Part shown: piece after piece, positions 11,130 to 39,022 of the stretch
Layout of the letters: every line of letters begins with the position of its first letter
Position numbering within the stretch: position 1 is the stretch's first letter
Assembly (NCBI GenBank): GCA_046563655.1
Contig: CM102285.1
Span: 7,440,001 to 7,504,000, forward strand
Length of the DNA stretch: 64,000 nucleotides
Reading direction: 5' to 3'
Origin: Yuukianura sp. NJ FZ-2021
Lineage: Eukaryota
Notes under the pieces: generated by a model
Database searches by the model: none
What the model saw: only the letters and a program-made list of their open reading frames with translations
Told to the model about the DNA's origin: nothing
Made by a program: the position numbers and the translations under genes

Positions 11130-12420
11130 AACCTCCTCGTTTTTCTGTTGAATGAAAAAACTCTATTGGCCATTCTAAAATACGCTCGGTTTGCGGTAGT
11201 AGCATGTAATCAGTAATAACGTCACATTTGTAAATTTCTACTAGATCGCCAGTATTTATAGCTCTGTATCCCGGACTACGCATGAGTGTCCTAACAAGTA
11301 AACTAGGTTGTCCACTTGCTGCAAGCATTCTCAAAAGTTGTAAATGAGATTTGTGTGATTGGCATACTTCTCTGTTTATAGATTGAATTGCAAAATCGTG
11401 TCTTTTGGATATTACTTCGTATAAATAGGTCAATTTTGCATTCACAAGTCCAGCGGTCCTCATCGTCTGAGGAATATTTGTGGTGTCTGTTGTTGTAGGT
11501 ATAATACCAGGAATAGTAATGAATGAATGAAGGTCAGTTCCGTTATCTACGGATCTTCTAGATCTCAAGTGCTCAGTAACCTTGAGTCGAGTTGCATTGG
11601 TGAAGGAAATTATTTTGTGGAATGTTCTATTAAATTGCATAAAGAAAAGTCCGTGCTCACTTCTGCCAAATTGAAGATCGCATCTAGTTGAAATACTAAG
11701 TTTGGTAATTGCAATTTCTTTGTCAGGACATGAAATTCGTCCATCAGTCAGTAAACAAGTGGTCGAGTCGCCTTCTTTCAACCGACAAATTCGCACTGAA
11801 TTTGGTAACCAGCAAACAACGCCGAATTTAGTTGGACAGGATCCGGTTCTGAAATTACACAGTTCAACAGTTTTTGCGTTGGTGATAATAGAATCATCAG
11901 CGTCATTTACCGTTATAGTCAAAGGGACAAGAAAGTAGTTAGTTATGGTATTAGTGTAAGTAGTAAGCCACCAATATTCAATTGTCAGTTGCAATTTTGT
12001 GCCAAATAATCCGTCGAGTAATTTTTCCAAGTGAAAGGTTTGAGGTTGTGGACTGCGGTGAGATCTTACCATATCTCTGCATTCTTTCTCAGTAACTGCC
12101 TCTTTGGATTTTAAAAAATTTTTCTGATTTGGATCCAAAAAAAGTCATGTATGTCTTAACTTCCTCACGGATTCGAAAGCATTCATAACCTTGGAAAGTG
12201 TTATGCGTAATATCGGGATGCCAAAATGTTAAGTCTATTAAAGTAGAAGGTTTAGTAGTATCAACCAAAGGACAAGAAATATCTTCTGGTAGCTTCCAAG
12301 GAATACCGGTAGTCCATCCGCGACAATAAAAAAGTTGAGAGGTTTTTGTGTCATGAGTAAGTGTGTCATCAAGTAAATAAATCTTTGATAGTCGCATTTT
12401 CTTGATTTTCTGCTTTACAG
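11130..12420 (-). pseudogene. Class III viral fusion glycoprotein relic G1 (chuvirus/gB-like, or env of an LTR element)
   Basis: ORFs 12089-12487 and 10972-12138 joined by a frameshift ~12120: GYEC...TFFG...VTEKECRDMV, CNFRTGSC...GVVCW, furin site RSRR, helix NAKLTYLYE...CQ, PSLLVRTL...GDLVEIYKC. Truncated before any TM anchor. Confidence 0.7.
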
Positions 12421-12912
12421 AGGAATAGGCACACCGTCCAAAGAATGTAGAGAAAGAGCATCTTGAGAGTTTTGAAAACCCATGCATCGGGCACCAATAT
12501 TACAAGACTCGCGTCTTGAAACAATAATAAAATCAAATGAAAATATTTTGAGACTGTCTTTTTTCACTTTATTCAATGAACCAAATGAAATGTGCTTTAC
12601 AACACTAGCTTGACCTGGTAGGGTCACTGCTGAGTGAGCTGGGACTTGGAAGAGTTTCTGCTGGACCAACGACTGGTACAGTTCCAGGTGTGGCAAGTCC
12701 TTAAATAGCTAATTACATAACCTATGTTACTACAGGGTTAGGGATGGTCAGGGTGCATTCCTGTCCTATCCACTTTACTTACTCTTAACAATTATCTAAA
12801 AAGTTTCAAAAAGCCTAAAGTGCACTTGGTACTAAAAAGTATCTTTAACATGGTCAGTACTTACAAATGGAATGCAAGTGAAAGTGAACTTAGCAATAAA
12901 TCTATTTTAGAA

Positions 12913-13960
12913 TTATTGATGTGTAACAGCAGTATCAATACTATGTTCCTGCGCTGGTTCTGTATTGTCATTAAATGTTTCAGCAATGAATTTGTTGAAT
13001 TCTGCGTCATCATCATCTCTAGAGTTAACCCACTCTTCTCTCTCCCCATCAACTCTGGTCCTTGGAGCCCTAGATGGGAGAAAGTAAAGTTTTTGTGGCC
13101 GAGATCCAATTTTGTGTTCCGGTGTACTAACTGATGGCGTCTGTGAAAAATCACAGGATCCAATATGCAACAACCTTGAGGTAGGAAGGTTGTCCGATTC
13201 TGATTGTTTCATAAAGATTGGAAAAGCGAGATTCTATTTTGAATTGTGTTGTCATATCCATAGTTACGGTCTGTTCTAATTGGTCTGTAGGTTCCACTAT
13301 CCATCTCGTAATTCCAATTCTGGCTCCACAGTGTTCCCTGGATTTGTCATAATAGTCTGTAATGCTTAAGGCCAAATCTTTGCAGATAATATGATTCGGG
13401 TTGACGAAACAATTAGAGCCGTGCGCTTCGTTAAGGAGCAATTATGGCGATGAGTCGGCCAGATGAGTATGTGCCAAACCACAACCCCTGCCGGCATTCA
13501 TCGCCAGCAAAGTCGCAATTTTCTTGCATCTGCGGAACTTCGGGTGATCTAACGTAGCCTGTATATGGATCATACTTGACGCTCACTGTTGTTAAGTAGT
13601 TGTTGATGACGTAGACCGCCCACAAGGATTTAGCTCTAATGGACGTGTCATTAATCACCAAGTGATTCCGTGTCCCCCATGTAGTGTGATTTAGCTCATA
13701 CGTGGTGTATCCGTCCGGATCCATGTGTTCTGTGTACATGGGTAGACAACTGGTAGCATTGATCGGGTTAGCAAAAGTGTTTTTAGCCTTACCGGTTTGT
13801 ATGGATTGTCGGGTTGGTTATAGGCGAACGTAATCACTTTGACACAATGATATCCCGTTATCGACTCTGAAGGAGAAATTCCGCTCCATAGGGTTAGAGA
13901 AATCATGATGGAATCTTTGATACCGTATGGGGTCTTGTCTTCAGTAATCCCATGGTCCAA
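12913..13960 (-). pseudogene. Class III fusion glycoprotein relic G2, multiply frameshifted
   Basis: GYHCVKV, TTWGTRNHL, NNYLTTVSV...CDFAGDEC and NCFVNPNHIICKDLALSIT...HCG align in order with G1 motifs. Confidence 0.6.
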
Positions 13961-14366
13961 ATCCGAGTGTAATTAGTATGAATCAGATCCGCATCTTCTT
14001 CCTCGATTAAATTGGTCAACTTCTTCTGGTGGTGGCTGAGTTTCATAGTTTTTGTGTCTCCATACAGAATTACAAATGGTGCAACGTGAGAAGTCATCTG
14101 AAGGAAAGAAAATAGTTGTCATTTAAACGCCCAACTGTCCCACTGAAAGTGTGTGTTCTTTGGTTAAGTTAAAAACGGAAATTAAATGAGAAAACTGACT
14201 GCCGAGGAGAAAGTTGCGTGAATTAGGTCTACGGGCTGGCCATGACATATGGCCATGTCTCTTAACTGGTCAGAAATTACAACTCATTTGTAATTTCTCA
14301 TCATCTATCGGTATCATCTGAATTTTAGTATTTCTCCAGTCAATGATATGTCTTTGAAAATCAATC

Positions 14367-14426
14367 ATTTTTTTTTTTTTTTATTTGTATGTAGCCGCTC
14401 CCTACGGGCCCGAAGCCCATGGAGCC
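14367..14426 (-). mobile_element. Short poly(A)-tailed retroposon 3' end
   Basis: ~16-nt T run followed by ~45 bp of GC-richer sequence; AATAAA next to the tail on the minus strand; AATCATTT on both sides may be a TSD. Confidence 0.35.
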
Positions 14427-14746
14427 AAAAAATCATTTGCCTCTAAACGGGTCACAGGGAGTTCGAATTACAGGATCATGCATTAATCGTCTTGATGGAA
14501 AGCTGAAGTTGAGAAATTGCTCAATAAGGCTAAATCAGGGTCACATTTCTTTGTGTTGATGAGCTGCTGAGTTAGGAATGTGCTAACTGTTACAATGTTA
14601 CAATGATCAGCTTCTAACTTTAACTCGTTTAGGAAAAAGTTCAAAGTACAGTTCAACTTAGATCATGACTAAACTAGGCATTAAAATGATTTTAGGTGGG
14701 GTCGATGAAAAGAAAAATTACAACACAAAATTTCGGCGTTAAAAAT

Positions 14747-15547
14747 TTAGGCTGGAAGGACGGCTCCTTCTGAGTCAACTGTAAATGTTTTGACTGAGTT
14801 CCCATTTACCATGGTCATCTTGCCTTGTCGAATCTGAAACCTGGCTCCAGGATGGTCGTCTCGTAGTTGTTTCCTGGCAGCTCTCAAAATTCCTTCTTTT
14901 TGGCGATCCATTTTCGTTCTTTCCGGATTGATGAAAATTGTCTTTAGGAACGGATCGTTGCGATGTTGAGACTTCCGCTCTAAAATGGTGAATTTATCTC
15001 GTTCTCGTAGTAGCTGCACTTGGACAAGCCTGGGTCTGTTGGTCTTCCGTCCTAATCTTCGGCATTGGCTGAAGTCAAGCGATGCAAGGCTCAGTTTTTG
15101 AAAAACGTTACGAACCGTTCCGTATAGGGTCTCAAATGATTCATCATTCGTCTCGTCAAGACCGGCGATGATGATGTTTGTGGCAATAAGCTTCTTGTTG
15201 ACACGGTTCAGTTCTTCGTCAATGGCTGTAAATCGTTCACTTACTGCAATTGGGTCAACTGTGTCGATCCCTTTTAGTTTTTCCCACATCGGTTGCCATT
15301 CTAGAAATTGTCGTACTAAGAAACGCATTTGTTCTTCTAAAGTGCCTGACAGAGGGTCAGTGGGTGGAGCTGAATCCTTGTTTTTTTTGTCGTCATTGGT
15401 CAGCGGTGAAGAAGCTGGTCGTTTTAAGGCGGAGGGCTGCAGTAGATCCGAATTAGATGCAGTAAGAGTTGACCTTGAGGTCCTTGGGGTGTTGTACGGG
15501 TTGAGTGTCGGGGAGCGGAGCAACTTTGACATTTCCACTATTGTCAC
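14747..15547 (-). CDS. Non-LTR retrotransposon ORF1 (CR1/L2/L1-type coiled coil + RRM)
   Basis: Coiled coil followed by NIIIAGLDE...RRLGRKTNRPRLVQV...IFINPERT, the usual ORF1p RRM/CTD signature; no ORF2 follows. Confidence 0.75.
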   Translation of the reverse strand: MTIVEMSKLLRSPTLNPYNTPRTSRSTLTASNSDLLQPSALKRPASSPLTNDDKKNKDSAPPTDPLSGTLEEQMRFLVRQFLEWQPMWEKLKGIDTVDPIAVSERFTAIDEELNRVNKKLIATNIIIAGLDETNDESFETLYGTVRNVFQKLSLASLDFSQCRRLGRKTNRPRLVQVQLLRERDKFTILERKSQHRNDPFLKTIFINPERTKMDRQKEGILRAARKQLRDDHPGARFQIRQGKMTMVNGNSVKTFTVDSEGAVLPA

Positions 15548-15582
15548 AATCCCAACTTAGCAAATTAGAATACAATCTATGA

Positions 15583-16822
15583 TTAGAGAGAGCAGCAATA
15601 AGATGCGACCGTCTCCGTCAGGATCTCAAATCGAACTCTCCTTGAAAAATCAATCACCACACCTTGATTATGCAAAAAATCATTTCCTAATAATACTTGT
15701 AAAGAAAAATTCGCCACCACCACCATTTTATGAATAATACGTTGATTGGCGATTTGAATATGGACCATGGACACTCCTAAGGACGGTGTCGCCGTATTCC
15801 CAATGCCTTTAAGTGTAATTTGCCTGTCAGGTTGTAAAATATTGTTTGGTTTTACAAACTTGTCATGAATAACTGATGTTTCTGCACCCGTATCTAATAG
15901 AAAATCTGTTTTATGTTGATTTACATAACCACTAACTTTTAAAAGTCCATTCATCCCAATATTACAACTAATGAAATCCTCCTGAGTTGTATCGATGTTG
16001 AAAGAATTGATTAAGGTATGTAGATGTGGAGTCGTATTGTGACTTATAATGCAAATGCAGGATTCAGAGAGTTGACCAATGGATTGACATGGGTCGCTTG
16101 TGTGGTAGGCCTCCCAACTGTCTGCGGAAGCTGAGGATTGGTCATGCCCCCCTTCCGCTGGCCGTTTTTTTTGTTGCAATCTACATGTACTATCGCTGTG
16201 ACCGGTAGATCGGTGGAGTGAACACCACTCGTTACTTTGGCAGACAGACGGAGATGGTTGTTGGGGTTTTTGGCAAAAACATGTCGCCTCCGAATGCGTA
16301 TTGGTATTATGGAATGAGCAAAACTGTTGTCGTGATTGATTTGGGGTGACGCTGGGACAGTTTGCTGCGAAATGTGAATCTGAGTTACATCGAAAACAGC
16401 GGCGACCATTCGGACAAGTAGCAGCAATATGTTGGTCTGAGTTACAGATAAAGCAGTTACCATTATTCCGCTGGGATCTGGGTGACCCAGAAAATCCACC
16501 TCGCTGCCCTCCCCTTGCGCGCACTGGTTTACTATATTCGCCAACTCGTGTGTTCACCCCACAATGTTCAGCGGTTGTATAGTCGGGTAAAATGTGTGGT
16601 TGTTTAGGTACAAATTCGGTAGTTTGTTGGGTAAGATACGTTTGCATTTGTTCAAATGACCTTATTACAACGTTCCATATTTTCTGCCTGATCGGCCAAG
16701 ATGGAAGTGGCTTGTGTCATTAGGTTTACCTCTTTCTGATGCAAAAGCATCTCGTTAGTTTCTTCAATGGAACGAACTGCTTTAAGAAAATCAGCGATCG
16801 TTTCAGGTTTTTGAACTTCGAG
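15583..16822 (-). pseudogene. Ty3/Gypsy gag-protease, 3' part (split by the Polinton)
   Basis: Two CCHC knuckles (CFICNSDQHIAATC, CFRCNSDSHFAANC), CxxH-H-C motifs, aspartic protease FLLDTGAETSVI...LLGNDFL; truncated before RT. Confidence 0.85.
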
Positions 16823-16913
16823 AGTAGAGAGTAAGTGAGGACTTCAGCACCCTCCTATTTTTAGAACAGCCACGGGGGTTAGTCGGCCGCAATATTGGGG
16901 AGGGAAAAACTCA
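16823..16913 (+). repeat. Left terminal inverted repeat (~91 bp)
   Basis: Identical to the reverse complement of the right end for 87 bp, then a 1-nt indel in an A run and CTCA. Confidence 0.97.
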
Positions 16914-17168: not shown

Positions 17169-17942
17169 ATGGCATATCAATTCGATTTCGATCGACTCCC
17201 ATACCTGTGCCAATTAGAAATATTTTCAAATTTGGACAGGTCTAGCGCTTTGCAGCTGGTTAAAGTATTTCCAGACTCCTTAGACATTCTCAAGCCAATA
17301 CTTGACAAGATGGGCGCCAAAGTTGCAGAGTACACCCCATTTATGATAAGTGTTGGTGAGACGCACATCGTTCATCTTGATTTCAATAAGAAACAAATGT
17401 TTAGAGTTGTGCTGGCAGGTCTAAAAAGTTTTCCGATTGGACGCGTCCTTACGGCGAAAAACTTTGTAACTGCGATTGCACCACACAGGACGACAGTCGA
17501 AATCTCGCTATTCAAAAATTGTTCCATCGAAGACCTCTTACCCCTCACCGAAAAATTTGACTTTGAGCGCGGGATTTTTCGGGATGACACTGTAATCAAC
17601 ATCACACCTCATCGCTACAGCTGCAGATACGAAACGTACGGCTGCAGATACGAAACGTATCAAGCCCTTGGAAGTATTGAAGACGCACGACATCGCGGGG
17701 AGAGAAATCAGGAACTCCGGCGGCTACTTCTGGAGTCATCCATTGAATTTGACAAAGAGTTGGAAGAATCTCATCGAAAATACCAATTAAAAATGCGAGA
17801 AGAAAAATTGCAACGTTTGCGCGAAGAAAAATTCCAACGATGGATTCGTCGTCGGAAGGAATTGAAACAATCTGCTGCTTTTTTTAAGCTAAACATATAT
17901 CGTCGTCGCTTGGCTCTTCAGCGTTTGAGCAAACGTAACTAA
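17169..17942 (+). CDS. Polinton-borne F-box-like protein with basic coiled C-terminus (257 aa)
   Basis: N-terminal FDRLPYLCQLEIFSNLDRSSALQLVKV fits the F-box pattern; E/K/R-rich C-terminus; AATAAA immediately after the stop. Confidence 0.7.
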   Translation: MAYQFDFDRLPYLCQLEIFSNLDRSSALQLVKVFPDSLDILKPILDKMGAKVAEYTPFMISVGETHIVHLDFNKKQMFRVVLAGLKSFPIGRVLTAKNFVTAIAPHRTTVEISLFKNCSIEDLLPLTEKFDFERGIFRDDTVINITPHRYSCRYETYGCRYETYQALGSIEDARHRGERNQELRRLLLESSIEFDKELEESHRKYQLKMREEKLQRLREEKFQRWIRRRKELKQSAAFFKLNIYRRRLALQRLSKRN

Positions 17943-20598: not shown

Positions 20599-23500
20599 AT
20601 GGCGAAAAGATCTGCATCTCCCGCTCCGGGTCCATCATCTAAGCGCGGATGTCACACATGTGAAATCTGCAACGAAAAGTTCCCATGCGCAAATCAGCTG
20701 CTCATCCACATTCACATTCAGCATGAAGAAGAGGACGAGACTGTCACCGAAGGAACAAAACAACTTCCACAGATGCCCACAGATGGCCCAGGCGTTCTTT
20801 CCATGTACCGTGAAATGAAATGTCCACCATGCAATCTGACATTTCCGTGTCGCGATGAAATGCAAAAACATTTTTACGAAGTTCATCCAGATTTTTTCTC
20901 TGATCTGACGCAAGACGGAGGTCAACTTCAAACAAATTTGGAGCCAATAACTGTAGAACCACTTTTCACATCGCTAAACACAGTGACACAATACCGTGCG
21001 ATATTTCAAGACTTCAAATGTGAAAATGGCGTAGATGAACGTGATTTTCTAAAGTGTGTCTACGATTCATCAGCAACATGTATCAAAAAAGACAGAAAGA
21101 AATGGAAAAACGTCAAAGTTTTCTTCTCTATGGTATGTAATTTTACAAAGTCTTATATCAACGGTACAGTCGAGACAAACCGCGGCTGTTTCACATCATT
21201 TCGCCATCTTGTTTACACTGATGAAAGTATTCCAAAGGTGTGGAATATTATGGGTCATCAGATGTCAAACCAAATTGAAAACTTTACGAATGAGGGAAGT
21301 GGGTGGGACTTGGCCTATATTTCCGAGTTTAAATTCGTCACCGCCAAATACCAATTTACCAAAATTGGAACTTTTATTGAAACGCCATTCCCTCTTTCCG
21401 AACACAACAAAACATTGTTAAACATTGACAATAGTGAAGTGACACCGTCAAACTCTCACAATCAGTGCTTCCTTTGGGCTGTTCTCGCTCATGATAAAAT
21501 AGTTGGAGCGACTCTTGGAAGAAATCGTTACAAAGTGGACAAGAAGGTCAAAACTTACGCCCCCCACGCATCAAAGGTAAACACTCAAGGTTTACACTGG
21601 CCAATGACACTACAGCAGCTCCCACGTTTTGAGCAACTCAATCCCGACATCTCAATAACAGTTCTCGGCTATGACATGGATGCTCCAAGTCCTCCACCGC
21701 GAAAAAACGATGCTACTCGTCAAAGGTCAAAGGCAGCGCAAAAGGAAGACCTCGACTTGTTCAAATGTATGCAGGAGAATATTTCAATCCTCTACAACTC
21801 GAAAGAATCCAAACAGATTCACGTGGACTTGATGTGTCTGATGCATGGCAACAACGCTCACTTTCTTCTAATCCGAAATCTTGAAGCACTAATGAAGCCT
21901 CCGAATTGTCACCGTACGTTGCACATTTGTCGCAATTGTCTTTCAAACTTTACACTTGAAAAAACGCTGAAAGAACATATTCCCTACTGTGCTGCGCTGG
22001 GCCTCCAAAAAGTTAAATACCCAGAGGGGGATAAGTGCAAGCTGAAATTTGACAAATGGGCACGTACTCAGCCAATTCCATTCCGCTTCTACGCAGATTT
22101 TGAAGCATTCCTCAACAAGTTTGACTCTACATGTGAACACGAAGTCTGTCGCCAACGGCATAAGGCGAAAATGACTGGATCAAAAGAAAAAGAAGTCAAG
22201 GAAAACACCGGTCGTGTTAATATACACAAACCATGTGGATATGCATGGGTTTGCGTTGACTTTAACGGTAACCGTCGCTATGGAGAGTGCTATCACATGA
22301 CAGACGATGACGAAGACGTGGCTGCACACTTTGTTGCGAGCATTCTCAGATACTCCAAGACTCTTCAGAAGGAAGTTGACGAATATGAGAGGATTGCTCC
22401 AAGAATGTTGGATCAAAACATGACCCGAGAACAGTGTGAAGCTTCAGAACGTGAAACAAAATGCTGTTTTTGTGAAAAAGCATTTTGTTTTGGTGAAACA
22501 AGAGTTCGTCACCACACACATCTACCACCTTTCAATTACATTGGAATGGCACATCAGTTCTGCAACATCGAGGCACAAATTAAAAAGGAATTTCCAGTAT
22601 TCCTTCACAACTTTTCTTCCTACGACGTCCACTTCCTCATCCAATCAATGGGGAAGCTGACAGAAGACAAAATCATCAAAAGCGTTGATGTCATACCGAA
22701 GAGTAGCGAAAAGTACTTGTGCGTGACCATCACTCCAGAGTATTCAGGAGAAGCAGAGGAAGAAGAAGACGAGGACGACTTGGTTGGGAACGCTAGAAGA
22801 AGACAAAAGTACAAACTACGATTCACAGACAGTCTCGGCTTCACTCTCAAATCCTTGGATAGTTTAGTGAAGGTAATGCGTCAGGACCCGAATGCCAAAT
22901 TCGGAATTACAAGACAGAAATTTCAGCAGGAAGTTAATAACGGTGGCAACATTGACCTCCTTTTTAAAAAAGGTGCATACCCCTATTCACTGATGAAATC
23001 GTGCGAGGATTTTGAGATGACTAGTCTACCGCCAAAGGAAGCATTTTTCAACGATTTAACCGAATCACCGATTCAAGATGAAGTCTACGAACATGCTGAG
23101 AATGTCTGGCGAAGCTTTAATATACAGAACATGGGTGAGTGGCATGACCTTTACGTTAGGCTTGACGTCTCACTGCTTGCTGATGTCATGGAGGGACTTC
23201 GAAAGCTGATGATGGACAGCTACGGTCTGGAACTGGGTCATTATTATTCACTTCCTATGATGGCAATCGATTGCGCTCTAAAAAAGTCTGGGGTTGAACT
23301 GGAACTAATCACAGATCCTACCATGCATTGCTGGTTTGAACGTGCAATAAGAGGTAAGTTTTTATTAAATTTTTACACTTTTATAAGTTGAACCTAACTA
23401 ACCTAACCTAAAAACTTTTCTTCTCAATTAGGTGGCTATGTCAGTGTGGGGTCACAACGTTCTGCAGTTGCAAACAATCCCTTTATGGCTGAGGAGTTTA

Positions 23501-24988
23501 ACCCAGAGAAACCGACGAGTTACATAACTTACATTGACGCAAATAATTTATATGGAAAATCAATGTGTCAGAAGCTTCCGGTTGCATCTTTTCGATGGCT
23601 GACAACCTCACAAATGGAACAAATTTTAGGGAACATTAACAGCTTTATGCTGGAAACGGACAGATGCGTGGATACCGGCTATTGGTTGGAGGTTGACCTC
23701 GAAATTGATCCCAAACTCCATGCGCAGTTAAATGACTATCCGCCAGCTCCCATCACGCGAACTGTTACGATGGATGAACTCTCAGAACATCAGCATAACC
23801 AAATTGAAGACCTCAACTCTGGGCCTGGATTGTTCAAAGTTAAAAAACTTGTTGCAGATTTGAACAACAAAGAGAGCTACATCCTTCATTATGAAATTCT
23901 CAAACAATATCTGGCGATGGGTGTCAAGGTTACCAAAATTCACAGAGGCGTTTCTTTTACTCAGAGTGATTGGATGAAGAACTTTATAGATTTTAACACG
24001 GAAATGAGGAAGAAGGCGACCAGCGATTTTGCTAAGGACTTTTGGAAGTTGCTCAATAACTCTGCATTTGGCAAGACTATTGAACAAGTTCGAAATCGGC
24101 AGAATGTTCGAATTGTAACAACCGTTGAGAAGGCTTTATACTACAACAAAAAGCCGACAGTTCAGAACGTAATTCCAATCAACGAAACAACATGTATTTT
24201 CGTGATGAAGAAGCTCCAAGTGACACTCAACAAACCAATTTTCACTGGAGTCACAGTCCTTGACCTTGCCAAGAGTATCATGTATCGACATCACAGAGAG
24301 GGAATGCAAGCTCGATATGGAGACAAGTGTCGTCTTATTTACACTGACACAGGTAAGTTCTATAAAATTAAATTCTTAATAACTGCAATAAGTTTACAAT
24401 TAATAGTTAAAAAACTCCAAGAAGGATTACAATTTTCTCTTTCTTGTTACAGATTCCTTCATTTATCACATTGAAACCAAAGATCTCTACCAGGACATGC
24501 TTGAAAACAGAGAGCTTTACGACATGAGCGAGTATCCAGCCGATCACCCACAATTTGGAAAGTTTCACGATCCGGCAAACAAGAAAGTCCTTGGAAAATT
24601 CAAAGATGAAGCTGCTGGCGCTGTCATTACACACGTCTACTGTCCAAGGCCAAAGATGTACACTATCCGATCCCTAAAGGTGGCACAAATCGACGGGGAG
24701 TACCAGAAGAAGCCGGATGGCGGTTGGCTCATGAAGGATGACTATACCAAGAAGGCAAAAGGAATAACCAAGACGGCAGTGAACGGACAAGTCAAGTTTG
24801 AAGACTATGAAAAAGTTTTGCAGGAAAACGTTCAAACGATGGTTACAATGAGGGGTTTTCGAAGTGTAGAACATCGAATTTTCACAGAGGTAACCATGAA
24901 GAGGGCTCTCAACGGATTGGACACCAAGAGATATGCTGTAGATAGTGTTAATACTTTAGCTTTTGGTCATAAAGATATTCCAAAATAA
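20599..24988 (+). CDS. polB: Protein-primed family B DNA polymerase, 3 exons, 1403 aa
   Basis: Exons 20599-23353, 23432-24352, 24453-24988. Exo motifs YADFE, HNFSSYD, LYVRLDV; Pol motifs IRGG, YIDANNLYG, KLLNNSAFGK, YTDTDS (restored by splicing). N-terminal C2H2 fingers, vOTU-like CFLWAV/HF, Endo VII-like CCFC...HHTH...AHQFCN. Confidence 0.95.
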
Positions 24989-25108: not shown

Positions 25109-25984
25109 ATGCGTGTCTACTCTGCCTGTGGTAAATTATTTTCGCGTTCTGACGTTGCAAAGCGTCACGAGAAGACATGTTTTAACTGTTTCTCTAGATC
25201 TCCCACCACCGCCGCCGCCACATCCTGGGTGGTTCCAGCCATCGGTGGGGCAGGCCCCACCGTTGGAGGGAGTTCCACAGCCGCCACCCCCGCCGCCGCC
25301 CTTGCCACCGCCGCCACTCTACTTCAGCATCCACGGTCGGGAGACGATATTGACTTGCAACTTGTGGCACCGTTTACAATGTGTGTGAGCGGAATGACAA
25401 ACACAGGCAAAAGCACGCTTGTCAAGGAAATTTTGATTCGAAGAAACGAAGTTGTAAAAACTTCAAATGGAATTGCAAATGTAACTTATTGTTACACAGA
25501 GTGGCAGTCTGGCCTATTTGGAGAACTAAAAACAAAAATCCCTGGAATTCAGTTTGTTCACGGATTGCCCGAGAAATGGCATGATGGTACTGACAGACCG
25601 TCAATTATGGTTCTGGATGATTTAATGCATGAAGCAGGGAAGAAGGGAGAGGTTGGAGCAGCCTTCACGAGAACTTCTCATCACAGAAATGTGTCTCTGA
25701 TTATCTTGGTTCAAAATTTTTTTCATAAGAATTTGAGAGAAATTACACTCAACTGTCAGTATTTGGTTCTCATGAAGAATCCTCGAGACTCTGCGTTTGT
25801 TTCATGCCTTGGACGACAAATGAATGGAGGAAAAAAGAACGCTACAATGGACTTGGCATACAAGGAGAGCATGGCAAAGCCCTACGGCTATCTTTTAATT
25901 GATCTGACTCAATCACAAAAGGACGACTATCGAATTAGAAGTAGCATTTTTCCCGAAAATTGTTATGTTTATGTCAATGAATAA
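25109..25984 (+). CDS. A32/FtsK-like genome packaging ATPase
   Basis: Walker A GMTNTGKS, Walker B IMVLDD, SHHRNVSLIILVQN. Confidence 0.93.
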   Translation: MRVYSACGKLFSRSDVAKRHEKTCFNCFSRSPTTAAATSWVVPAIGGAGPTVGGSSTAATPAAALATAATLLQHPRSGDDIDLQLVAPFTMCVSGMTNTGKSTLVKEILIRRNEVVKTSNGIANVTYCYTEWQSGLFGELKTKIPGIQFVHGLPEKWHDGTDRPSIMVLDDLMHEAGKKGEVGAAFTRTSHHRNVSLIILVQNFFHKNLREITLNCQYLVLMKNPRDSAFVSCLGRQMNGGKKNATMDLAYKESMAKPYGYLLIDLTQSQKDDYRIRSSIFPENCYVYVNE

Positions 25985-26264: not shown

Positions 26265-27266
26265 CTACTGATCCAATTTCAACAGCTGCTTGTCGTAAAA
26301 ACTACCCAAAATAGGGGTACCCTCAAGGTCTTCTAGCTTGTAAACGTATGGATTAGTTGCTATAACTCTCACAATTCGATAAACTTCGTCAATATAGTTT
26401 GTCGAGTAGCCCTTTTCAAACGTTTTTTTAATTCTGGCGACAAGGACGAGGTCGTTTACGTTGAGTTTAGGCTTTTTATAGTCCACTGCAACTTCCGGGT
26501 ACAAGTTGCGCCGTACTTCATCCTCATTCCTTTCAGTAACTTTGCACGGCGCCATTTTAATACTTCGATGATATGCATGATTGTACAGATTTTCAAAATC
26601 TGGCAATTTATCAACAAACTTTTTGGTTCTGTTATGTGTCAAGTAGCGCTGAATTTTCATGAATAGTGTGCGGATGAAACGTTCCACAATCACACATTTT
26701 AATGGAGAATGTGTCCAGAATAGTTTGATGTCTTCATGCTTCAGATACGTCTTCATGTGTTGATTAAGAAATTCAGAACCTTTGTCAACTTGTACTCTCT
26801 TTGGCTTTCCACCACTGCGCTCTAAAATTTTTTTAAATGCTGAAAGAACTACTGGTCCTGTCTTGTTTGGAGTTGCCTCGATCCAGCCTTGTTTTGAAAA
26901 AGCGTCAATAACCACCAGCAAATACCTAGAAAACAAATTCGAGTTTTTAAAAACCCTAACCTAACCTAACCCAACGTAACCTAGCCCAACCTAACCTAAC
27001 CTTTTTTTATTATTGGCTCCCGACATGTTTTGAATGTCCTTCAAGTCTGCACAATACTGTTCGTGCATGCCTCCAACATAAACTCTCCGACGTGGAAACC
27101 GATATCGAACTGGACGATGGAGTTGATAACTTGGAATTTGCTTCAAAATTTTCTTGACGCGGTGTGGAGACGCCTTAGTGTTTGAATCTTTTTGAAACCC
27201 AAATGCTCCAGAAAAACTTCCAGGTAGTAAAGTGTTTAACCATCGTTGTTTCAGATCGGTGTCCAT
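26265..27266 (-). CDS. int: Retroviral-like (rve) DDE integrase, 2 exons, 308 aa
   Basis: Exons 27266-27001 and 26925-26265 (75-bp GT-AG intron); CADLKD...YLLVVIDAFSK...QVDKGSEF...IVERFIRTL. No C-terminal chromodomain seen. Confidence 0.93.
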
Positions 27267-27331
27267 GGTGGAAATGAAATAAAAGGACGCTGCACAGTTC
27301 AATTTGTATCATTCAGTCTCTAGCAATCAAA

Positions 27332-28348: not shown

Positions 28349-28873
28349 TTACAATTTTATACAACATTGATTTATTATTTTGTGTTTAAATTTACAATTT
28401 GAATTCAATAAAGGATTTTTTAATATTACAAATTTGCGTACTTTTTTATCATTTAATTGTTTATTGGGAGAAAAGTGACAGTAAGTAGATAGAATACAAC
28501 AGCCATGCATCATTTTATACAAAAAGTAGATTGCATATTGCCCACAAACATTAGAGTCAAGAGCTTGCAATGGTCTAGTATTTTCCAAAATTTTACAAGA
28601 AAACTTATTTACAAAATTTCTAAAGTCAATAGGGTAAAAATCCAGTCCAAGTCCATAAGAGCAAAAGAAGATGATTGGTCCAGTTCTGCCTCCAATGTAG
28701 ATTGCCACCCAATGTTCTCCAGGATGATCAGAAGGCTTGTTATTTACAACCAAGTAGGCTGGAAAGTGAGCAATTGTTAGCTTTCCAAGTAGGTCACATG
28801 GTATTACATTGAAATATGCTCTTGTTCCGCGAGTCATATTTGACAAAAACTTGTAAATTTGAGTGGTGTCCAT
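28349..28873 (-). CDS. Adenain-like (C5) maturation protease
   Basis: GEHWVAI, FFCSYG, LQALDSNVCGQYAIYFL. Confidence 0.92.
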   Translation of the reverse strand: MDTTQIYKFLSNMTRGTRAYFNVIPCDLLGKLTIAHFPAYLVVNNKPSDHPGEHWVAIYIGGRTGPIIFFCSYGLGLDFYPIDFRNFVNKFSCKILENTRPLQALDSNVCGQYAIYFLYKMMHGCCILSTYCHFSPNKQLNDKKVRKFVILKNPLLNSNCKFKHKIINQCCIKL

Positions 28874-30174
28874 TAGTGTGAATAGTCTTTGAAAAACACG
28901 TTCTTTCCTTCGTCAATATACAGAGTAGATTGAAAGTCAGCGTGACAGACAACGTTCCAAGCCTCAGTGGTAGGTTTTGCAAACTGAACGACGATTTTTA
29001 TACTTCCGTGTCTTGGGGGACAGTAGCCTTGATTCATGTTTCTGAGGTTAAAAATGAAAAACGCCTTTCCATTTGTAAACTCGGAAAGGCTAATAGCAGG
29101 TCCTTCATTGCTAGCACACAGTCCAAGACCGCTAAACATTCCATAGTATGCTTCAGAAACTCGAACATCACCATCACTGTTGTACTGGTAAACCTGATGA
29201 TAAAGTTGTTCTCCGTTTGCTGTGACGGAAATTTGTCTCAATTCTGGAGGTTTAAAGTCAAATGGATTTGTAGTCAGAGTTCCGTTCATTTTTTCACTTT
29301 GAACTAGGCAAAGTATAATTCTGTCCGGAAGTAGTCCATTAATCAAGTTTTCATTCACATTCGACACAGTGCCAAGGGGCAAGCTGTATGTTTTCATCTC
29401 AATCCGTCGCATTGGGTAGCATGCCGGTTGTCCATTAGCCCACATTTTCAAATGACAATTCAAAATATTCGGTAACAGAGTATGTTTTTTAACTAAAAGT
29501 CGTGCTTCAGTAATGTTGATTTTGTAGCGATTTGTATTGTCTGCCTGAGAGTGGAGTGCAAATTCTTCGGTGGAGCGGTTGAAAGTAACTCTAATATCGA
29601 TTCCAGGAAGCAAGTAGCGAGTTTGTGCAAAGATGTCAGCAAACGGTCGCCCAATCATGTCCAAGCCCTTGGCTGCTAATTCTTGTCTCTTTTTGTGGGA
29701 AGTGTCAGTGTCACTCAAATTCTCTTCCTCTCTCAAGTAAAGAGCAGTAACTGCTTGTGTATCCTTGTAGTCTCCTCCATATGCAAGCACAGTCTCAATA
29801 TAGGCCCGATACGGGTAGAGTGACATGGTTGGAGTAATTTGTGTTTCATTTAGAAACACAGAGCACTGCTGAAACAAGGAATGTAAAAAGTTGTTGACTG
29901 GAGCGATTCGCATGATGGCTCTCTCGTCCATTTTATCACTATTTGCTTTTGAAATCTTGCAGCCAACATATAACAAAGTTTCACTTAAATCAACATAGTG
30001 AACGTCATTTCCTTTGATTTGAAAAGAAATTGGACCTCCATTTTCATTTAATGCTGACAATGGATGGTACTCAAACATTCCACTACTTTGTAGACTAACA
30101 TCCATTTCTGGTTCACTAAATATGTCGGTTTCACTTCTAACTACTTCTGGGTGAGGGGCGTGTTTGGAACTCAT
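28873..30174 (-). CDS. Double jelly-roll major capsid protein (433 aa)
   Basis: GPISFQI...YVDLSETLLYV, PVNNFLHSLF...LNE, YPYRAYIET, LPDRIIL, NPFDF, typical of Polinton MCP; size and gene position fit. Confidence 0.9.
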   Translation of the reverse strand: MSSKHAPHPEVVRSETDIFSEPEMDVSLQSSGMFEYHPLSALNENGGPISFQIKGNDVHYVDLSETLLYVGCKISKANSDKMDERAIMRIAPVNNFLHSLFQQCSVFLNETQITPTMSLYPYRAYIETVLAYGGDYKDTQAVTALYLREEENLSDTDTSHKKRQELAAKGLDMIGRPFADIFAQTRYLLPGIDIRVTFNRSTEEFALHSQADNTNRYKINITEARLLVKKHTLLPNILNCHLKMWANGQPACYPMRRIEMKTYSLPLGTVSNVNENLINGLLPDRIILCLVQSEKMNGTLTTNPFDFKPPELRQISVTANGEQLYHQVYQYNSDGDVRVSEAYYGMFSGLGLCASNEGPAISLSEFTNGKAFFIFNLRNMNQGYCPPRHGSIKIVVQFAKPTTEAWNVVCHADFQSTLYIDEGKNVFFKDYSH

Positions 30175-31919: not shown

Positions 31920-32311
31920 TGTAGTACTTGAGTAGTTTTTGAGGAGAAGTTTCAACTGAAGCTGAAATGAGACTGATGGTTTGTTGAGCAGTCGAGCAGC
32001 CTTTTTATCCCAAATTTTCAGGTAGAAGTTTGACCCTTTTTTCTATTTTTAGCAATTCCAACAACTTAGATTTCTTGGAAAAAGGATTAAACGAACAACT
32101 CGAAACGTTTTTCAACGGAAACGAGCCTTTTCCTAATTCTAGGAAAAATAAACGTTTTTTCGACTTTGTCTAAAAATAGAAAGGACTAAAAGTTCAACGA
32201 CTCTAAAACGACATTCTCAAAATAAAATAACCCAAACAACAAAAAATTCGAAAATGTACAAGTTTGAATTTATTCAAATACAAAAACTGCTACTAAAGTA
32301 GATTATACAAT

Positions 32312-33163
32312 TTAACAAAAAATGTCAAAAGCTGAAATTTGCTTAACACCATAAAAAATAATGTTGAGAACTGTATCATCAGAGTATGACGATTGACGAT
32401 ACATGTTAAGATGGACCAGTCTAAAGTGCTCGTTAAAGTCATGGTTTGGAGTACGTCTTTGGTTGTTAATTTGAATTTGTTGATGTTTGGTAACGTCCAG
32501 AACATGCTTCGAGTAGGCTGGATTTAAAATGAAAGACTCTGGCGATAAATAGCAGGCAAATCGGTGAAACACGTTTGGTTTTTTGTATGGATGAACTTTC
32601 TTGTTCGTCTTTAAACCGGCAGCCTTGCCAATTGTTTCTTTAATTCTGTTGGTACGAGTGTTGAGAATTTTATCGCGTAGCTTTCTCATGTATTCACGTT
32701 TTGACTCATGAATGAGCTCATCCAGATACTTTTCTGTATATGAGGTCGGAAAGCAGCCACACTTTAGAAGTGATTCCACCAGAAGAGGAATGTCCATGAT
32801 TTCGATGGGAAGTGGACGGCCGCTACGTATGAGAAACACCCGATTCGCATTGCCTGTGATGCAGTGGATAGGAAGAAGCGGTCGCTCCAGCTTTTCTTTG
32901 AGTGTTTGAAACTCTGCGGGTGACTGCTGACGAAATAACTTTAGGAATCCATTCTTGCGGTTAGTTGCCATGATTGTTTCAAAGTGTGGTAAATCCTTCA
33001 TCATTTCCCCTGCGGCTATGTATGCTTTTACTAGCTTTTCCACCACGGTTGGCAGTTCCTCTGCTGTCAGAAGAATCGAATGTCCAGAAATCTTGACTGC
33101 GATGACATCTTCCATGTCAATAAACGGTTCCGAAACCTCCATGTATGACCTGAATCCCCGCAT
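32312..33163 (-). CDS. Polinton accessory protein, repeat-domain paralog 2 (283 aa)
   Basis: Intact ORF carrying two copies of the motif found once in 31503-31919. Confidence 0.6.
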   Translation of the reverse strand: MRGFRSYMEVSEPFIDMEDVIAVKISGHSILLTAEELPTVVEKLVKAYIAAGEMMKDLPHFETIMATNRKNGFLKLFRQQSPAEFQTLKEKLERPLLPIHCITGNANRVFLIRSGRPLPIEIMDIPLLVESLLKCGCFPTSYTEKYLDELIHESKREYMRKLRDKILNTRTNRIKETIGKAAGLKTNKKVHPYKKPNVFHRFACYLSPESFILNPAYSKHVLDVTKHQQIQINNQRRTPNHDFNEHFRLVHLNMYRQSSYSDDTVLNIIFYGVKQISAFDIFC

Positions 33164-33375
33164 GCTTATAGTTTGAGACTGGTTTTCGAACTGATGATTG
33201 CTAGTCTCAAAACTCACTGTTTAAGTACTGCTTGGACAACGTTTGAAATGCTATTTTGAAATTTTTTCAAAAACGTTTTTCTAAAGAAATGTTATTTTGA
33301 GAACTTTTCAAGAAAAAACGTTTTTCTTGAGAAAAGATATTTTTCCAAGAACTCAATCCTTAACTAAAAATAAAT

Positions 33376-33516
33376 AAAAAATAATAACATTGACCCCAGT
33401 CTTGTATCTAAGTACTTGTAACTTCTTAACCACAAGCGTTGACCCGTGTGGGATTCGAACCAGCGGCCGTAGAGAAGTAGTTACAAGCACTTAGACACTA
33501 GGCTAGAGTCAATGTT
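33376..33516 (-). ncRNA. Putative Pol III-transcribed VA-like hairpin RNA (~130-140 nt)
   Basis: A-box-like TAGCCTAGTGT (33505-33495), perfect B box GGTTCGAATCC (33461-33451), T6 (33381-33376); the ends form a 38-bp stem with 4 G-U pairs and 2 mismatches. Confidence 0.7.
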
Positions 33517-33548
33517 CGAATTTTCTATACAAAAATTTCACTACTTGT

Positions 33549-33665
33549 TTTTTGTTGTCGACTTTTTTGTTATCGACATTTTTTGTCGACATTTTTTTTT
33601 GTTTTCGATCTTTTCTTTGTCGTCATTTTTGTTGTCGACTTTTTTGTTGACGACATTTTTTGTCA
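33549..33665 (+). repeat. Right subterminal degenerate tandem array (T-run + GTCGAC-like unit, ~13-15 bp)
   Basis: About 8 units such as tttgttgtcgac, tttgttatcgac, ttttgtcgac directly inside the right TIR. Confidence 0.75.
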
Positions 33666-33668
33666 TTG

Positions 33669-33760
33669 TGAGTTTTTTCCCTCCCCAATATTGCGGCCGA
33701 CTAACCCCCGTGGCTGTTCTAAAAATAGGAGGGTGCTGAAGTCCTCACTTACTCTCTACT
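33669..33760 (-). repeat. Right terminal inverted repeat (~92 bp)
   Basis: Reverse complement of 16823-16913. Confidence 0.97.
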
Positions 33761-34571
33761 TCGAGCGCTGTTAAATTAGAGGGACGCAAATTACGTATCA
33801 ACCAACGGACCTGTTTACTCTCACTCATCCCTGGTTCCATCAATCGTAACAAATTAGTCAGTTCATACGTATATTGTGTTGCCGATTCGTTAAGCAACTG
33901 CTTGCTATTGATAACCTTTTGTTCCGCAGTAATAGTATTCGTTTCGCCAAAGGCTTTGATTAATTCTGCTTTTAAGCGATCATATTGAACCAAAAAGGGT
34001 TCCTCTGCCGGTAAAAGTTCTTTCATGGAATCCAAACAAGAAAGAAGCCAAGCTTCAGCAGTGTCTGTTAAATTATTACTCAAAATAACTGCATAACTTT
34101 GTTCGCTAATGCCATTACCTGCTGCTGCCATTTCAAATTTCGTCAAAAATCTTTCCACATCCTCCGATTTTTTTTCCAGCAAAAGTTGGGATTTTAACTT
34201 TATAATGATTCTTTCCTACTGGTGTACTTTGGAGTGGGATAAATCCAGTATTGAGGGTTTAAGTACTCTTATTTAATTGCGTATTCGCCGTAGGATAAGA
34301 AGGAGAGTACATTATGCCTTCCTCGTCCGAATCTGGTGTTCTCACCGGAAGCTGAGTTGCGCTTGGTGGTAACAGTCCGGAGGCTCCTGGAGTAGCCTTC
34401 GGATTCGCGTATGGTGGTGGGATATATCATTTAGGAGGTCTCAGCGGATAGTAAGGCATTGGCGTAGGTAGGCGAGTGTTGGGTAGGGGTGGGGCTGGAG
34501 AAGTAGTGGGTTCCGATAAGGGGGGTTTATCTAACAACTTATCTTGCTGGCTTGTCTTGGATTTGTCCATG
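33761..34571 (-). pseudogene. Ty3/Gypsy gag, 5' part
   Basis: Pro-rich start (ATG ~34571, with stops), then EDVERFLTKFE...AEAWL...KQLLNESATQY...WLIRNLRPS; continues in frame into 16817 after removing the Polinton. Confidence 0.85.
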
Positions 34572-35577: not shown

Positions 35578-36945
35578 TCATAACTTGTATGTTACAAATT
35601 TTCGAGGTAGAATACCAAGGAATCTGTTTTTGACGGTAAGATTTGGTTGATTAGAGGAATCCGTGCTACTGATATGCTCTACTCCCCCAATGTAAATGGA
35701 TTCAGTAATTTGGTTTAAATTTTGCCGCGGTCTGCTGGACCGTTGCTGATTGTATGAGTGGTAACCGTGTGACTGAAGAAAAGAGAAGTCAGATAACCTA
35801 CCATGAGCCTCCGAGTAGTTGATGGCTGATCGAACTTGGTCAGGATTAATAGCAATGGCGGATATACTATTTGACCATATCCCTCCTTTTACTGAAATAC
35901 CCGTCTGGTGAGTGTTGTGGATTTGATCATGTGCGTGAGAACGCAAAGCGTTTCCATCTTCGATAAATTTACCAAGAGTAGTCGTAGTACAAATGATGTT
36001 ACAGGCGTACGTTAAATCAGCAGTTTTGAATTCCGGATTGCAAATGATCGGAAACGCATAAGAATGGTCACCGGAATGTGATTTTAAAGCTGTGCACCAT
36101 CCCGTTTCATCTTGCAAAGAGTAGCCTAACTGTCGCCCATCCATGTATTCCTTCACCATTGGAAAATATGCAATCAATTTGTGCCAGTCTTCTAATTGAC
36201 GTAAGGGGAGTCGGAAAGCAATATGTTTCTCTAATTCGAGTTCCGAGAAGTATTCCTTAATACGATCAAACTGTATTCTGTAGAAAGCTTTAAACGCCAA
36301 CGACGTAGTTTTAACTGTCCCCATGTACGTCTGTGTCCAACCTGAATGAGTATTGAAATACATGCAATCTACAAATGGGTTGTACCAAAATGTATCGCAG
36401 TCCAACGAGATAAAAAAGGAAAGGCCACTATTACTGCGGAGGTCAAGCCAAACTTGGCTAACATGATCTAATTGCTCGGTATCTATCATAGCTGTAAAAG
36501 CGATACGGTTGAGTGCGATAAAGATGGCGACAACTACATCTTCCCGGTACTGCATGCCGATATAAGTGATACTTTGGTCTGTCAGAGTATTAAGCTGTTC
36601 TCGGAGAATGGACGACAACGGAACTATGCAGTTTGTTTGAAACGTTGAGTCCGCTTCTGACATATAAAAATGATTCCTTAATTGTAGAGAAGCTAACACT
36701 TCTGGCAGAAAAATATATTTCGGATATTGAAAAAACCAATTATAAAATTCCTGTTCCTTGAACTGTTGGAATTTCAATGTTGTGTTAACTTTGAACTGTT
36801 GCGGAATTCGTTTGTCATAGATGCCGGCTGAAGGGAGGACTGGTGGAAATTTGACCGCGGATTCTCGTATTCTCTTTGTTCCTTCCTTCCAAAGAGGGCT
36901 CCCCCATCCGTCGGATATCTCCACTAGTCCAACTGCTTCTGCCAT
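35578..36945 (-). CDS. Unknown family B copy 1 (455 aa, intact)
   Basis: Long intronless ORF from ATG 36945; strong collinear similarity to 37694-39022. Confidence 0.7.
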   Translation of the reverse strand: MAEAVGLVEISDGWGSPLWKEGTKRIRESAVKFPPVLPSAGIYDKRIPQQFKVNTTLKFQQFKEQEFYNWFFQYPKYIFLPEVLASLQLRNHFYMSEADSTFQTNCIVPLSSILREQLNTLTDQSITYIGMQYREDVVVAIFIALNRIAFTAMIDTEQLDHVSQVWLDLRSNSGLSFFISLDCDTFWYNPFVDCMYFNTHSGWTQTYMGTVKTTSLAFKAFYRIQFDRIKEYFSELELEKHIAFRLPLRQLEDWHKLIAYFPMVKEYMDGRQLGYSLQDETGWCTALKSHSGDHSYAFPIICNPEFKTADLTYACNIICTTTTLGKFIEDGNALRSHAHDQIHNTHQTGISVKGGIWSNSISAIAINPDQVRSAINYSEAHGRLSDFSFLQSHGYHSYNQQRSSRPRQNLNQITESIYIGGVEHISSTDSSNQPNLTVKNRFLGILPRKFVTYKL

Positions 36946-37693
36946 TCTGTAGGAAGCAAAAACAGTCAATATTCGAAAATCGACAATTCCGTGGAAAAAA
37001 TATGTTGGATTAATGATGGATAAGATGAATGGCATCAAGAAGGAACAGAAGGATGTAAGGAGGAACGGAAGTACTCATATGCCTGGTGCTAATGCTAACC
37101 AGCTTTGCTGTTTTTGTGTTTGAATTTTTGTCCTACTATTTGTGGAATTATAAACCGAAGTGTGTATGGATACTACTAGTGGCATGTCAGGAATTGCTAA
37201 ACGAAATATTTAAAATCCCCGCGGTATATGGTGATTTCTACTTTGTGAGAAAAAGAAAATAATGATAAGAGGAAGAGCTGCCATCCATGATAAAAAAAAA
37301 CCACATCAATCAAAAATCGAAAAACTGGTTAAATCGGAGGTGAAATCAAAAAAGTGGCTCGACATTCCTTTAATGGAAAACCTATGGTAGTCTGTACCCA
37401 GTATGCCTAACGGTGTAAGTAAATTAAAGTGCATAAATTTTGTCAAAAGGTTAACCTAGTTATCAGAAATATGATAGCAATTTTAAAACGAATTTACTCA
37501 AAATGTGGCGTGATAAGTCATAACAGCTAACTTAAACGATAAAGAAACAATTACATGAAAAACGAAAGTTCCAAAAATTACATTCACTATCCTATGATCG
37601 GAGCCACAATTTGTCTGGTTAAAGTTTTGGGTATAAAGATATAGAGAATGATATACAAAATTGAAAAATAACGTGCATCTATCGTCTGAAACG

Positions 37694-39022
37694 TCACTTA
37701 AAGGAATATCTACGTTTAAGTATAGATTTAGTATCTCCGCGCCTGTCGGTGAGGAGATTATGACTGGATCCTTCGAAATACATTGTTTCAATACGCTCGT
37801 GTAAACGATGTCTAGGTCGTTTAAATAACGGTTGAATAGGAAGTTCCCAGCCGTCATTAGCTAATTTAGACATTTCCATCACCCCACAAGTGTAGTCGGA
37901 CAAAGATTGAAGAGCCTGAAGTTGTTCATAATTAATGCGTAGCTGACATATTCGATTGAGTGCACGATTGGGTGTAAAAATCCCAATGTGATCTAAATTG
38001 TGTACAACACCATGAGCTTGCGAGCACCCTGCCCCGTGTTCTTCAATATATTTTCCAAACCGTGTTGTAGTACAGATCGGATGACAAGTATAGAAGCGAT
38101 CAGCTGTGGCAAACATAGGATTTGTTGGAACAGGAAACGCGTAGGTGTGATCCCCTACATGTCCTTGAAGTGGTGTACACCAACCCGTATAATCATCGAA
38201 TGCTGTAGGTTTGTGTTTGAGTCTCCTATACTCGCGAATAAGGGGATGATAGGCTATAATTTCATGGCAAAACCTCAATTTTTGAACAGGTAAGAGGAAT
38301 GCAAACTGTTTGGTATGTTCAAGGAGATAGAAATATTCATAAATGTCTTTAAATTGTTGGCTGTAAAACGCTTTAAATGCTCAGCTGTCCGACCTTACAT
38401 TTCGCATATTGTGTTGTAGAGGCCCTCCCTCGTGTTGGGCATACATGGTATCCGTAAATGGGTTATACCAGAAAGAACGAGTAGGGAGTGAAAGAAAGGA
38501 GCATCCAACCTGCGCTTTCAGATCTATCCAAACCTGGTTAACCCGTTCGGGTAGTGCGATATGTGAGCAGCTAACTCTACCCAACTGATTGTGCGTAATT
38601 ACAAGGGCTGATTGGTAGCCAGCAAATTTCTTAAAGCCAATGTATAACAAATCTGGATTGTCTATTAGTGGTTGGAGTTGGGAGAGTAGAGTAGGTGGAA
38701 TGGGAATTAGTCTCCCGAATTTAAATGTAGGTGGTCCGAGTTCTTCCATAAAGTGATTACGAAGTTGAAGAATCGCCAAAACTTCTTCAAGAACTAGTAT
38801 GGTCGAATGATGGAGAAACCATGTGAAAAATTCCATAAGTTTGAGTGTCTGCAGAGTGATCGTAGAGTTCAACTGGACCGTTGTTGGGCATCGTTGGTCA
38901 ATATGGCGATATCCTACCCGTCCAGCTCCTAGGGCTTCTAAGACATCTGTCACATTCCTTGATCGATCCCATTGGTTATGAGGAATATCGGACGTCCAGA
39001 GTACGGGAAACTGTGCTGCCAT
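37694..39022 (-). pseudogene. Unknown family B copy 2 (single in-frame TGA at 38381-38383)
   Basis: ORFs 38381-39022 and 37694-38278 share a frame; reading through gives DS*AFKAFY versus TSLAFKAFY in copy 1. Confidence 0.7.

Follow-up and report, generated by a model that had tools for sequence, protein, structure and literature searches.

Polintons reside in animal genomes and are related to adenoviruses. In tRNA-miRNA-encoded RNAs (TMERs), hairpin RNAs expressed from a tRNA-like viral Pol III unit enter the small-RNA pathway; endogenous short-hairpin RNAs from tRNA-type genes also exist, and the RUF6 RNAs of Plasmodium are of Pol III origin. As described in the accessible part of one source, the terminal stem of adenovirus VA RNA contains box A, the apical part contains box B, and an oligo-T run marks the end (PMC7589676). 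The same part describes a conserved GGGU/ACCC stem, three domains, a pseudoknotted central domain and a U-run, and reports that VA genes are thought to derive from tRNA genes (PMC7589676). The accessible parts of two further sources assign TMERs to murine gammaherpesvirus 68 (PMC4337559, PMC4045068). For Polinton-like viruses and virophages, 558 tRNA hits and 10 miRNA-family hits are given for one collection in the accessible part of another report (PMC12220804). The titles and abstract openings in our literature search hold no Pol III hairpin or VA-like RNA for Polintons, Mavericks or adintoviruses, and the search returned no paper on adintovirus together with VA RNA. Here, we describe a structure that is real and unusual, namely a fold-back around a tRNA-type promoter near one end of a multi-copy Polinton.

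The DNA analyzed is a stretch of 64 kb, referred to as the window, and the hairpin lies within a 16.9-kb Polinton, approximately 160 nt inside the right inverted repeat. The first-pass annotation had already placed the hairpin in such an element, and the features of the window confirm this assignment. The left terminal inverted repeat (16823–16909) and the right one (33674–33760) are each 87 nt long and 100% complementary to each other, and the 6-bp target duplication TTCGAG flanks the element as a direct repeat (16817–16822 and 33760–33765). On the minus strand, the Polinton encodes an rve integrase core (26265–26960, E 3.6e-10) and a capsid protein of the F54H12.2 type (28873–30174). The capsid has 318 relatives at E ≤ 0.001, few of them named, and the names are F54H12.2-like or major capsid protein. 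The polymerase, which in Polintons is protein-primed, is split into three ORFs (20599–24988) and was recognized by eye from motifs in the translation, and these ORFs had no match in the Pfam, PHROGs or PDB sequence searches. Additionally, 25109–25984 has a weak Pfam match, below the cut-off, to an A32-type ATPase. Searches of the polymerase, protease and neighboring ORFs against Pfam, PHROGs, PDB sequences and the Atlas returned nothing beyond rve and this weak A32-like ATPase.

Proceeding inward from the right end, the inverted repeat is followed by a 15-nt T-rich/TCGAC tandem array of 7.5 copies (33548–33663), the hairpin, a 45-nt repeat of 2.3 copies (33245–33343) and an ORF running from 33163 to 32312. 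The latter is the first ORF downstream of the hairpin, lies on the same (minus) strand and encodes 283 aa; searches of Pfam, PHROGs and the Atlas assigned it to no family. At the 15-nt array, 117 nt are skipped in some sister contigs. This array, which resembles adenovirus packaging repeats, could serve in packaging or protein binding at one end only. The 45-nt repeat contains inner palindromes, shows insertions and deletions in sister copies, and may be a promoter region.

Several further features of the surroundings were recorded. A CCTAA array of 9.6 copies (26952–27002; TTAGG on the other strand, telomere-like) separates the integrase-frame fragments 26265–26960 and 26991–27308. The first ORF inside the left end (17169–17942) has an N-terminus that appears F-box-like by eye and has no Pfam match. 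The whole Polinton is nested in an LTR retroelement (10972–16647 and 33766–34400) that encodes a gag aspartyl protease; the retroelement also has an envelope-like ORF, which matches the Monjiviricetes fusion glycoprotein family (E 1.1e-7). Outside the Polinton, the ORFs 35578–37035 and 38381–39022 appear to be paralogues by eye and belong to no Pfam family. A sigma-70/terminator scan was set aside as irrelevant to a eukaryote.

The hairpin proper, 131 nt long, is an imperfect palindrome that runs from 33516 to 33386 on the minus strand. It comprises a 38-nt 5′ arm (33479–33516), which contains an acceptor-like start and the A box, a 55-nt core (33424–33478) and a 38-nt 3′ arm (33386–33423), which is an inverted copy of the 5′ arm with six differences. 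The annotated range extends to 33376 because a T6 run follows the stem after a 4-nt spacer. On the minus strand, the 38 pairs between the arms consist of 32 Watson-Crick pairs, 4 G-U pairs and 2 mismatches (C-A and A-A), so the 38-bp stem proposed at first pass stands with six non-Watson-Crick positions included. On the plus strand, the corresponding numbers are 32 Watson-Crick pairs, 1 G-U pair and 5 mismatches.

Folding, which the first-pass annotation had suggested as a check, was performed on 161 nt. The minus strand reached −69.5 kcal/mol, compared with −32.4 ± 3.6 kcal/mol for shuffled sequences (z −10.3; none of 200 shuffles as good), and the plus strand reached −49.2 kcal/mol (z −6.3; again none of 200). 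For the 131-nt hairpin alone, the values are −65.1 and −48.1 kcal/mol, respectively, and the minus-strand fold is thus better by 17–20 kcal/mol. The minimum free energy fold of the hairpin is a single long stem with a small apical hairpin. Furthermore, this is the strongest local hairpin of the window. An inverted-repeat search of the whole 64 kb found 14 local inverted repeats, among which the hairpin is the longest, with 54-nt arms at 80%; the next is 28 nt, and no further copy of the hairpin was found in the window. The strand preference of the G-U pairs had been taken as a sign of selection on an RNA of minus-strand polarity. Four of the six imperfect pairs are indeed G-U on this strand, but the argument for selection is not supported, since a split of 4 versus 1 between the strands is not significant (p ~0.19, one-sided).

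The promoter-like elements also lie on the minus strand. The A-box-like TAGCCTAGTGT (33495–33505) begins at nucleotide 12 of the stem, with 11 nt of stem before it, and fits the consensus TRGCNNAGTGG except for the last base. The B box GGTTCGAATCC (33451–33461) lies 33 nt beyond the A box, with its tenth base at 33452, and the T6 run, a candidate Pol III terminator, occupies 33376–33381, 4 nt beyond the stem. The window copy therefore carries an intragenic box A, a box B and an oligo-T run, the combination typical of VA genes, at the positions and spacing given by the first-pass annotation. In the window, TRGCNNAGTG occurs twice and GGTTCGANNCC once when both strands are counted. An A box with a B box 25–70 nt behind it was found once on the two strands together, namely in the hairpin, and this combination has an estimated chance of ~7e-4 per window. 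Taken by itself, the B box is not rare if one mismatch is allowed (1 match versus 0.94 expected, with at least one in 58 of 100 shuffles). Similarly, the T run alone is weak evidence because the minus strand of the window has 82 runs of at least six T.

The stem begins 11 nt ahead of box A and ends 4 nt short of the T run, borders that fit where a type 2 Pol III gene would start and stop, and no run of four T occurs inside the 131-nt hairpin. In sister contigs, the T run is kept and is longer by 1–2 T (an extra A behind 33375 in runs X1 and X3). Moreover, the 11-nt A box contains four of the six positions at which the arms differ, and there the 5′ arm has the consensus base at all four positions and the 3′ arm at none. 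The chance that all four would go one way is 1 in 16; this asymmetry is suggestive rather than proof, and it is more telling than the G-U polarity.

We then considered the kinship of the unit with known RNA families. With default settings, ARAGORN found no tRNA genes in the 64-kb window. A tRNA-like core of 74 nt (33438–33511, minus strand) was called only at the 80% threshold; this call is at noise level because the same threshold gives 34 calls in the window, and relaxed ARAGORN thresholds were for this reason rejected as evidence. The derivation from tRNA(Leu) put forward at first pass thus finds no support. The Rfam models gave nothing at their gathering scores, and the tRNA and VA models had no match at E ≤ 10 in either 1001 nt or 181 nt around the hairpin. 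The best Rfam matches, all far below threshold, were long-hairpin plant miRNA precursors of the MITE type (MIR821, 36.6 bits versus a gathering score of 249; MIR2630, 36.7 versus 144) and Plasmodium RUF6-5, which matched over the whole model with 34.5 bits versus a gathering score of 70. Since the tRNA models give no match, the case for a tRNA-gene origin draws on the T run, the acceptor-like complementarity and the two boxes with their spacing. A 23-nt pattern from the hairpin core is identical in 20 metagenome loci (L001–L020), with no Polintons and no hairpin arms among them. Four of these 20 loci were scanned, and in each the pattern falls at the 3′ end of tRNA-Glu(UUC) within arrays of 3–21 tRNA genes. 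The 23-nt core appears to resemble a T arm with acceptor strand, and its identity with tRNA-Glu(UUC) is likely coincidental.

Based on these features, we tentatively prefer a reading that we hold to be slightly less likely than not, namely a Pol III cassette derived from a tRNA gene and remodeled as a natural short hairpin, with activity in at most a few copies. A type 2 Pol III gene, with boxes A and B in the right order and spacing on the minus strand, would have been reshaped into a fold-back. Pol III would start approximately 11 nt before box A, which is the start of the stem, and would stop at the T6–T8 run, 4 nt past the stem. The predicted transcript would be ~135–140 nt long, and its two ends would pair over 38 bp, leaving the 5′ end base-paired and a short overhang at the 3′ end. 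Such a short-hairpin RNA could then enter the double-stranded-RNA routes of the host (export, Dicer and ADAR). What we infer from this arrangement is transcription by Pol III, the two termini of the RNA and any benefit to the element.

To place the hairpin in its family, contigs of the public DNA runs X1, X3 and X4 and the RNA run X6 were mapped onto 32000–34400. The inner border of the hairpin is bridged by three contigs, namely X1 record 5 (33238–33436), X1 record 4 (33198–33337 and 33355–33480) and X4 record 21 (33239–33427). The outer border is bridged by X3 record 10 (33382–33583) and by the RNA contig X6 record 24 (33412–33672). Because these bridging contigs differ by ~9–17% from the window, the hairpin and the same neighbors were already present in the ancestor of the diverged copies. 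Absence from sister Polintons, which the first-pass annotation had named as a reason to give up its proposal, is therefore not what the diverged contigs reveal. Collectively, the right subterminal block of this Polinton family includes the hairpin as a fixed component.

These data also bear on the alternative that the hairpin is a passive relic, a possible but somewhat unlikely account. According to this alternative, a tRNA-derived fold-back, either SINE/MITE-like or an inverted duplication born of replication, arose in the family ancestor and has since been merely carried, with no promoter activity of its own; double-stranded RNA would form only via read-through transcripts, which the host would then edit or dice. 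A private SINE or MITE insertion, which the first-pass annotation had sought to exclude, is argued against by the palindrome's lack of a target duplication and by the same Polinton flanks in the diverged sister contigs listed; an old insertion in the family ancestor may fit. Even so, the window copy shows no target-site duplication around the palindrome, and the window holds no second copy. Among the contig rows listed, none leads from the hairpin into unrelated DNA and none has loose ends at its borders. In addition, the match of the stem borders to a Pol III start and stop would have to be a coincidence. The resemblance to MITE-type plant miRNA precursors in Rfam, far below threshold as it is, speaks for a relic, as does the number of imperfect stem pairs, which would be compatible with neutral decay.

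More distant relatives were sought by sequence pattern and by capsid. DNA patterns of the core and the arms had no matches in viral contigs or in genome contigs, and a search of viral contigs with the single capsid protein returned no relatives. With an alignment of 30 capsid sequences, we retrieved a 12.3-kb element (L021) with 33% identity from the viral contigs and two relatives from the genome contigs (L022, 31%; L023, 41%). None of these three Polinton-like relatives contains tRNA genes, and no comparable local hairpin was found in L021, which is complete, or in L022, which is partial.

A further point for a passive relic comes from the B box, which is damaged in the bulk of the copies. 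Its tenth base, 33452, corresponds to tRNA position 61 in the usual numbering. This position is among the invariant bases of the B box, and changes in it weaken TFIIIC binding. On the minus strand, the window has C at 33452, versus A in nearly all sister contigs. The A allele accounts for a depth of 11723.6 of 11786.6 in DNA run X1 (19 contigs), 10138.7 of 10259.6 in DNA run X3 (7 contigs), 179.6 of 179.6 in DNA run X4 (8 contigs) and 3.13 of 3.13 in RNA run X6 (1 contig). Because nearly all of the sister depth reads A, the perfect B box is not family-wide, and the most prolific lineage has spread without it. The first-pass annotation had noted the box as perfect, and these alleles give no support to selection for a perfect box. 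The residual depth is informative as well: the 63 non-A units in X1 equal the depth of the diverged record 4, and the 120.9 in X3 equal that of the diverged record 10. Since C at 33452 is, by this depth arithmetic, carried by two diverged contigs, it is common to two diverged lineages and hence probably the older state. Returning to the remodeled cassette, we expect activity in no more than a minority of copies, and an optional rather than essential role, because most sisters read A instead of C at this base. The family thereby offers natural C and A alleles of one B box for comparison.

Evidence from RNA is limited to one contig. RNA run X6, a metatranscriptome, covers 4 of the 30 bins, and the sole RNA contig found over the hairpin, X6 record 24, spans 33412–33672 with 260 nt and a depth of 3.1. 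It is plus-sense, opposite in strand to the proposed gene, longer than the unit, and extends 156 nt past the proposed start. The contig has the variants of the bulk DNA (33452, 33623 and a 4-nt gap at 33592). Beyond these shared variants, it shows 13 A>G and 1 C>T changes in plus-strand letters, within a stretch that contains 55 A and 112 T. Under symmetric change, 13 A>G with no T>C has a probability of ~5e-7, and the DNA runs lack this skew (16 A>G versus 17 T>C in X1). The pattern resembles the outcome of ADAR hyper-editing on a double-stranded, plus-sense RNA that spans the hairpin and the repeat array, a lead that comes from a single contig of low depth. By the same lead, the hairpin region may be transcribed and paired in vivo. 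An overlong, plus-sense RNA with an ADAR-like A>G skew is also what read-through of a passive relic would be expected to leave.

Several lines of evidence suggest the remodeled tRNA-type cassette: the single pair of A and B boxes in the window, stem borders that coincide with the expected start and stop, the lack of an internal T4 and the retained T run. The base asymmetry of the A box, the better fold of the minus strand, the diverged contigs with the hairpin and the probably older C allele point the same way, as do the ADAR-like RNA contig and the tRNA genes known in Polinton-like viruses from the accessible part of PMC12220804. Against the cassette stand the B-box hit in nearly all of the sister depth, the lack of a match to tRNA or VA models and the noise-level ARAGORN call. 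The same side includes the non-significant G-U polarity, the plus sense and excess length of the sole RNA, and the two relatives without the hairpin (L021 and L022). Furthermore, six imperfect pairs in 38 are roughly what neutral decay would produce at the divergence seen among the copies.

A second alternative is that the palindrome and the 15-nt array act in cis at the DNA level, as an end element of the Polinton. Possible roles are a packaging or replication signal, a protein-bound cruciform, a TFIIIC boundary or a part of the promoter of ORF 32312–33163. We consider this doubtful, more so than passive carriage, even though the position of the hairpin at only one end of the Polinton, adjoining a tandem array of a short motif, agrees with it. 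The depth profile agrees as well, in that the hairpin belongs to a terminal block of ~385 nt (33377–33781) with the highest summed depth of the mapped stretch. In X1, the two hairpin bins have summed contig depths of 9791 and 10436 and the three bins beyond range over 6173–15544; the five terminal bins thus lie at 6173–15544, versus 230–2363 in the ORF body (32324–33052) and 44–425 outside the Polinton, and there is no peak restricted to the hairpin. However, summed contig depth is not copy number. Additionally, an element acting as DNA has no need of A and B boxes or of G-U pairs, and the hairpin is missing from the two distant relatives examined (L021 and L022). As a separate observation, the summed depth of the body of ORF 32312–33163 (32324–33052) is far below that of both non-coding flanks in all three DNA runs, and this ORF may be a variable cargo gene or a fast-diverging gene.

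To our knowledge, VA RNA is not universal in adenoviruses, which we count against inheritance of the hairpin from a shared VA gene. A true VA RNA homologue from a common ancestor of Polintons and adenoviruses is hardly credible, since the general layout (PMC7589676, accessible part) and the kinship of the two virus groups speak for it and nothing else does, while no Rfam VA model matches at E ≤ 10, the GGGU/ACCC pair and the three-domain fold are absent, and the hairpin is absent from the other Polinton-like relatives examined (L021 and L022). Other or unknown readings of the hairpin take up what likelihood is left.

The remodeled tRNA-type cassette could also be read more ambitiously. A Polinton-encoded Pol III hairpin RNA, VA- or shRNA-like and independently derived from a tRNA gene, that is exported, diced or edited and blunts or steers the RNA defense of the host is unlikely. 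If true, the Polinton group of virus-transposons would have its first described non-coding RNA weapon in such a hairpin. A self-promoted hairpin RNA would tie Polintons to the small-RNA tactics of adenoviruses and herpesviruses. On a modest reading, edited double-stranded RNA from a tRNA-derived fold-back would explain how the element becomes visible to ADAR and RNAi.

Finally, we compared the hairpin with the known systems. Like Plasmodium RUF6, it has a terminal stem, a B-box-like center and an oligo-U tail; in contrast, the match is below the family threshold and the host is unrelated, and the likeness is an analogy only. With endogenous shRNAs from tRNA-type genes and MITE-derived precursors, it shares a long near-perfect hairpin that could be diced, whereas, unlike MITE-derived hairpin precursors, it has no target duplication and no free-standing copies among the contigs listed. 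The tRNA genes of Polinton-like viruses and virophages, as far as the accessible part of the source describes them, are similar in being tRNA-type genes inside a Polinton-like element; those genes pass the ARAGORN or Rfam thresholds, whereas the hairpin stays below them and is a fold-back (PMC12220804). In TMERs, the hairpins follow the tRNA-like part, whereas in the Polinton the tRNA-like part is predicted from sequence to be half of the hairpin.

The closest resemblance is to adenovirus VA RNA I and II, as the first-pass annotation proposed: an internal box A in the terminal stem, a box B further in, a U run, 5′ and 3′ ends that pair with each other, and a comparable size. The general layout therefore matches, but homology is not borne out, given the lack of an Rfam VA match at E ≤ 10 and of the GGGU/ACCC pair. 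GGGU is present in the hairpin, and the 131 nt contain no ACCC. The Polinton hairpin forms one long near-perfect stem, whereas VA RNA is built from an apical stem, a pseudoknotted center and a terminal stem. Moreover, the hairpin is subterminal in its element, and its box B is damaged in most copies. Collectively, the hairpin resembles VA RNA in plan and is not a member of the VA family.
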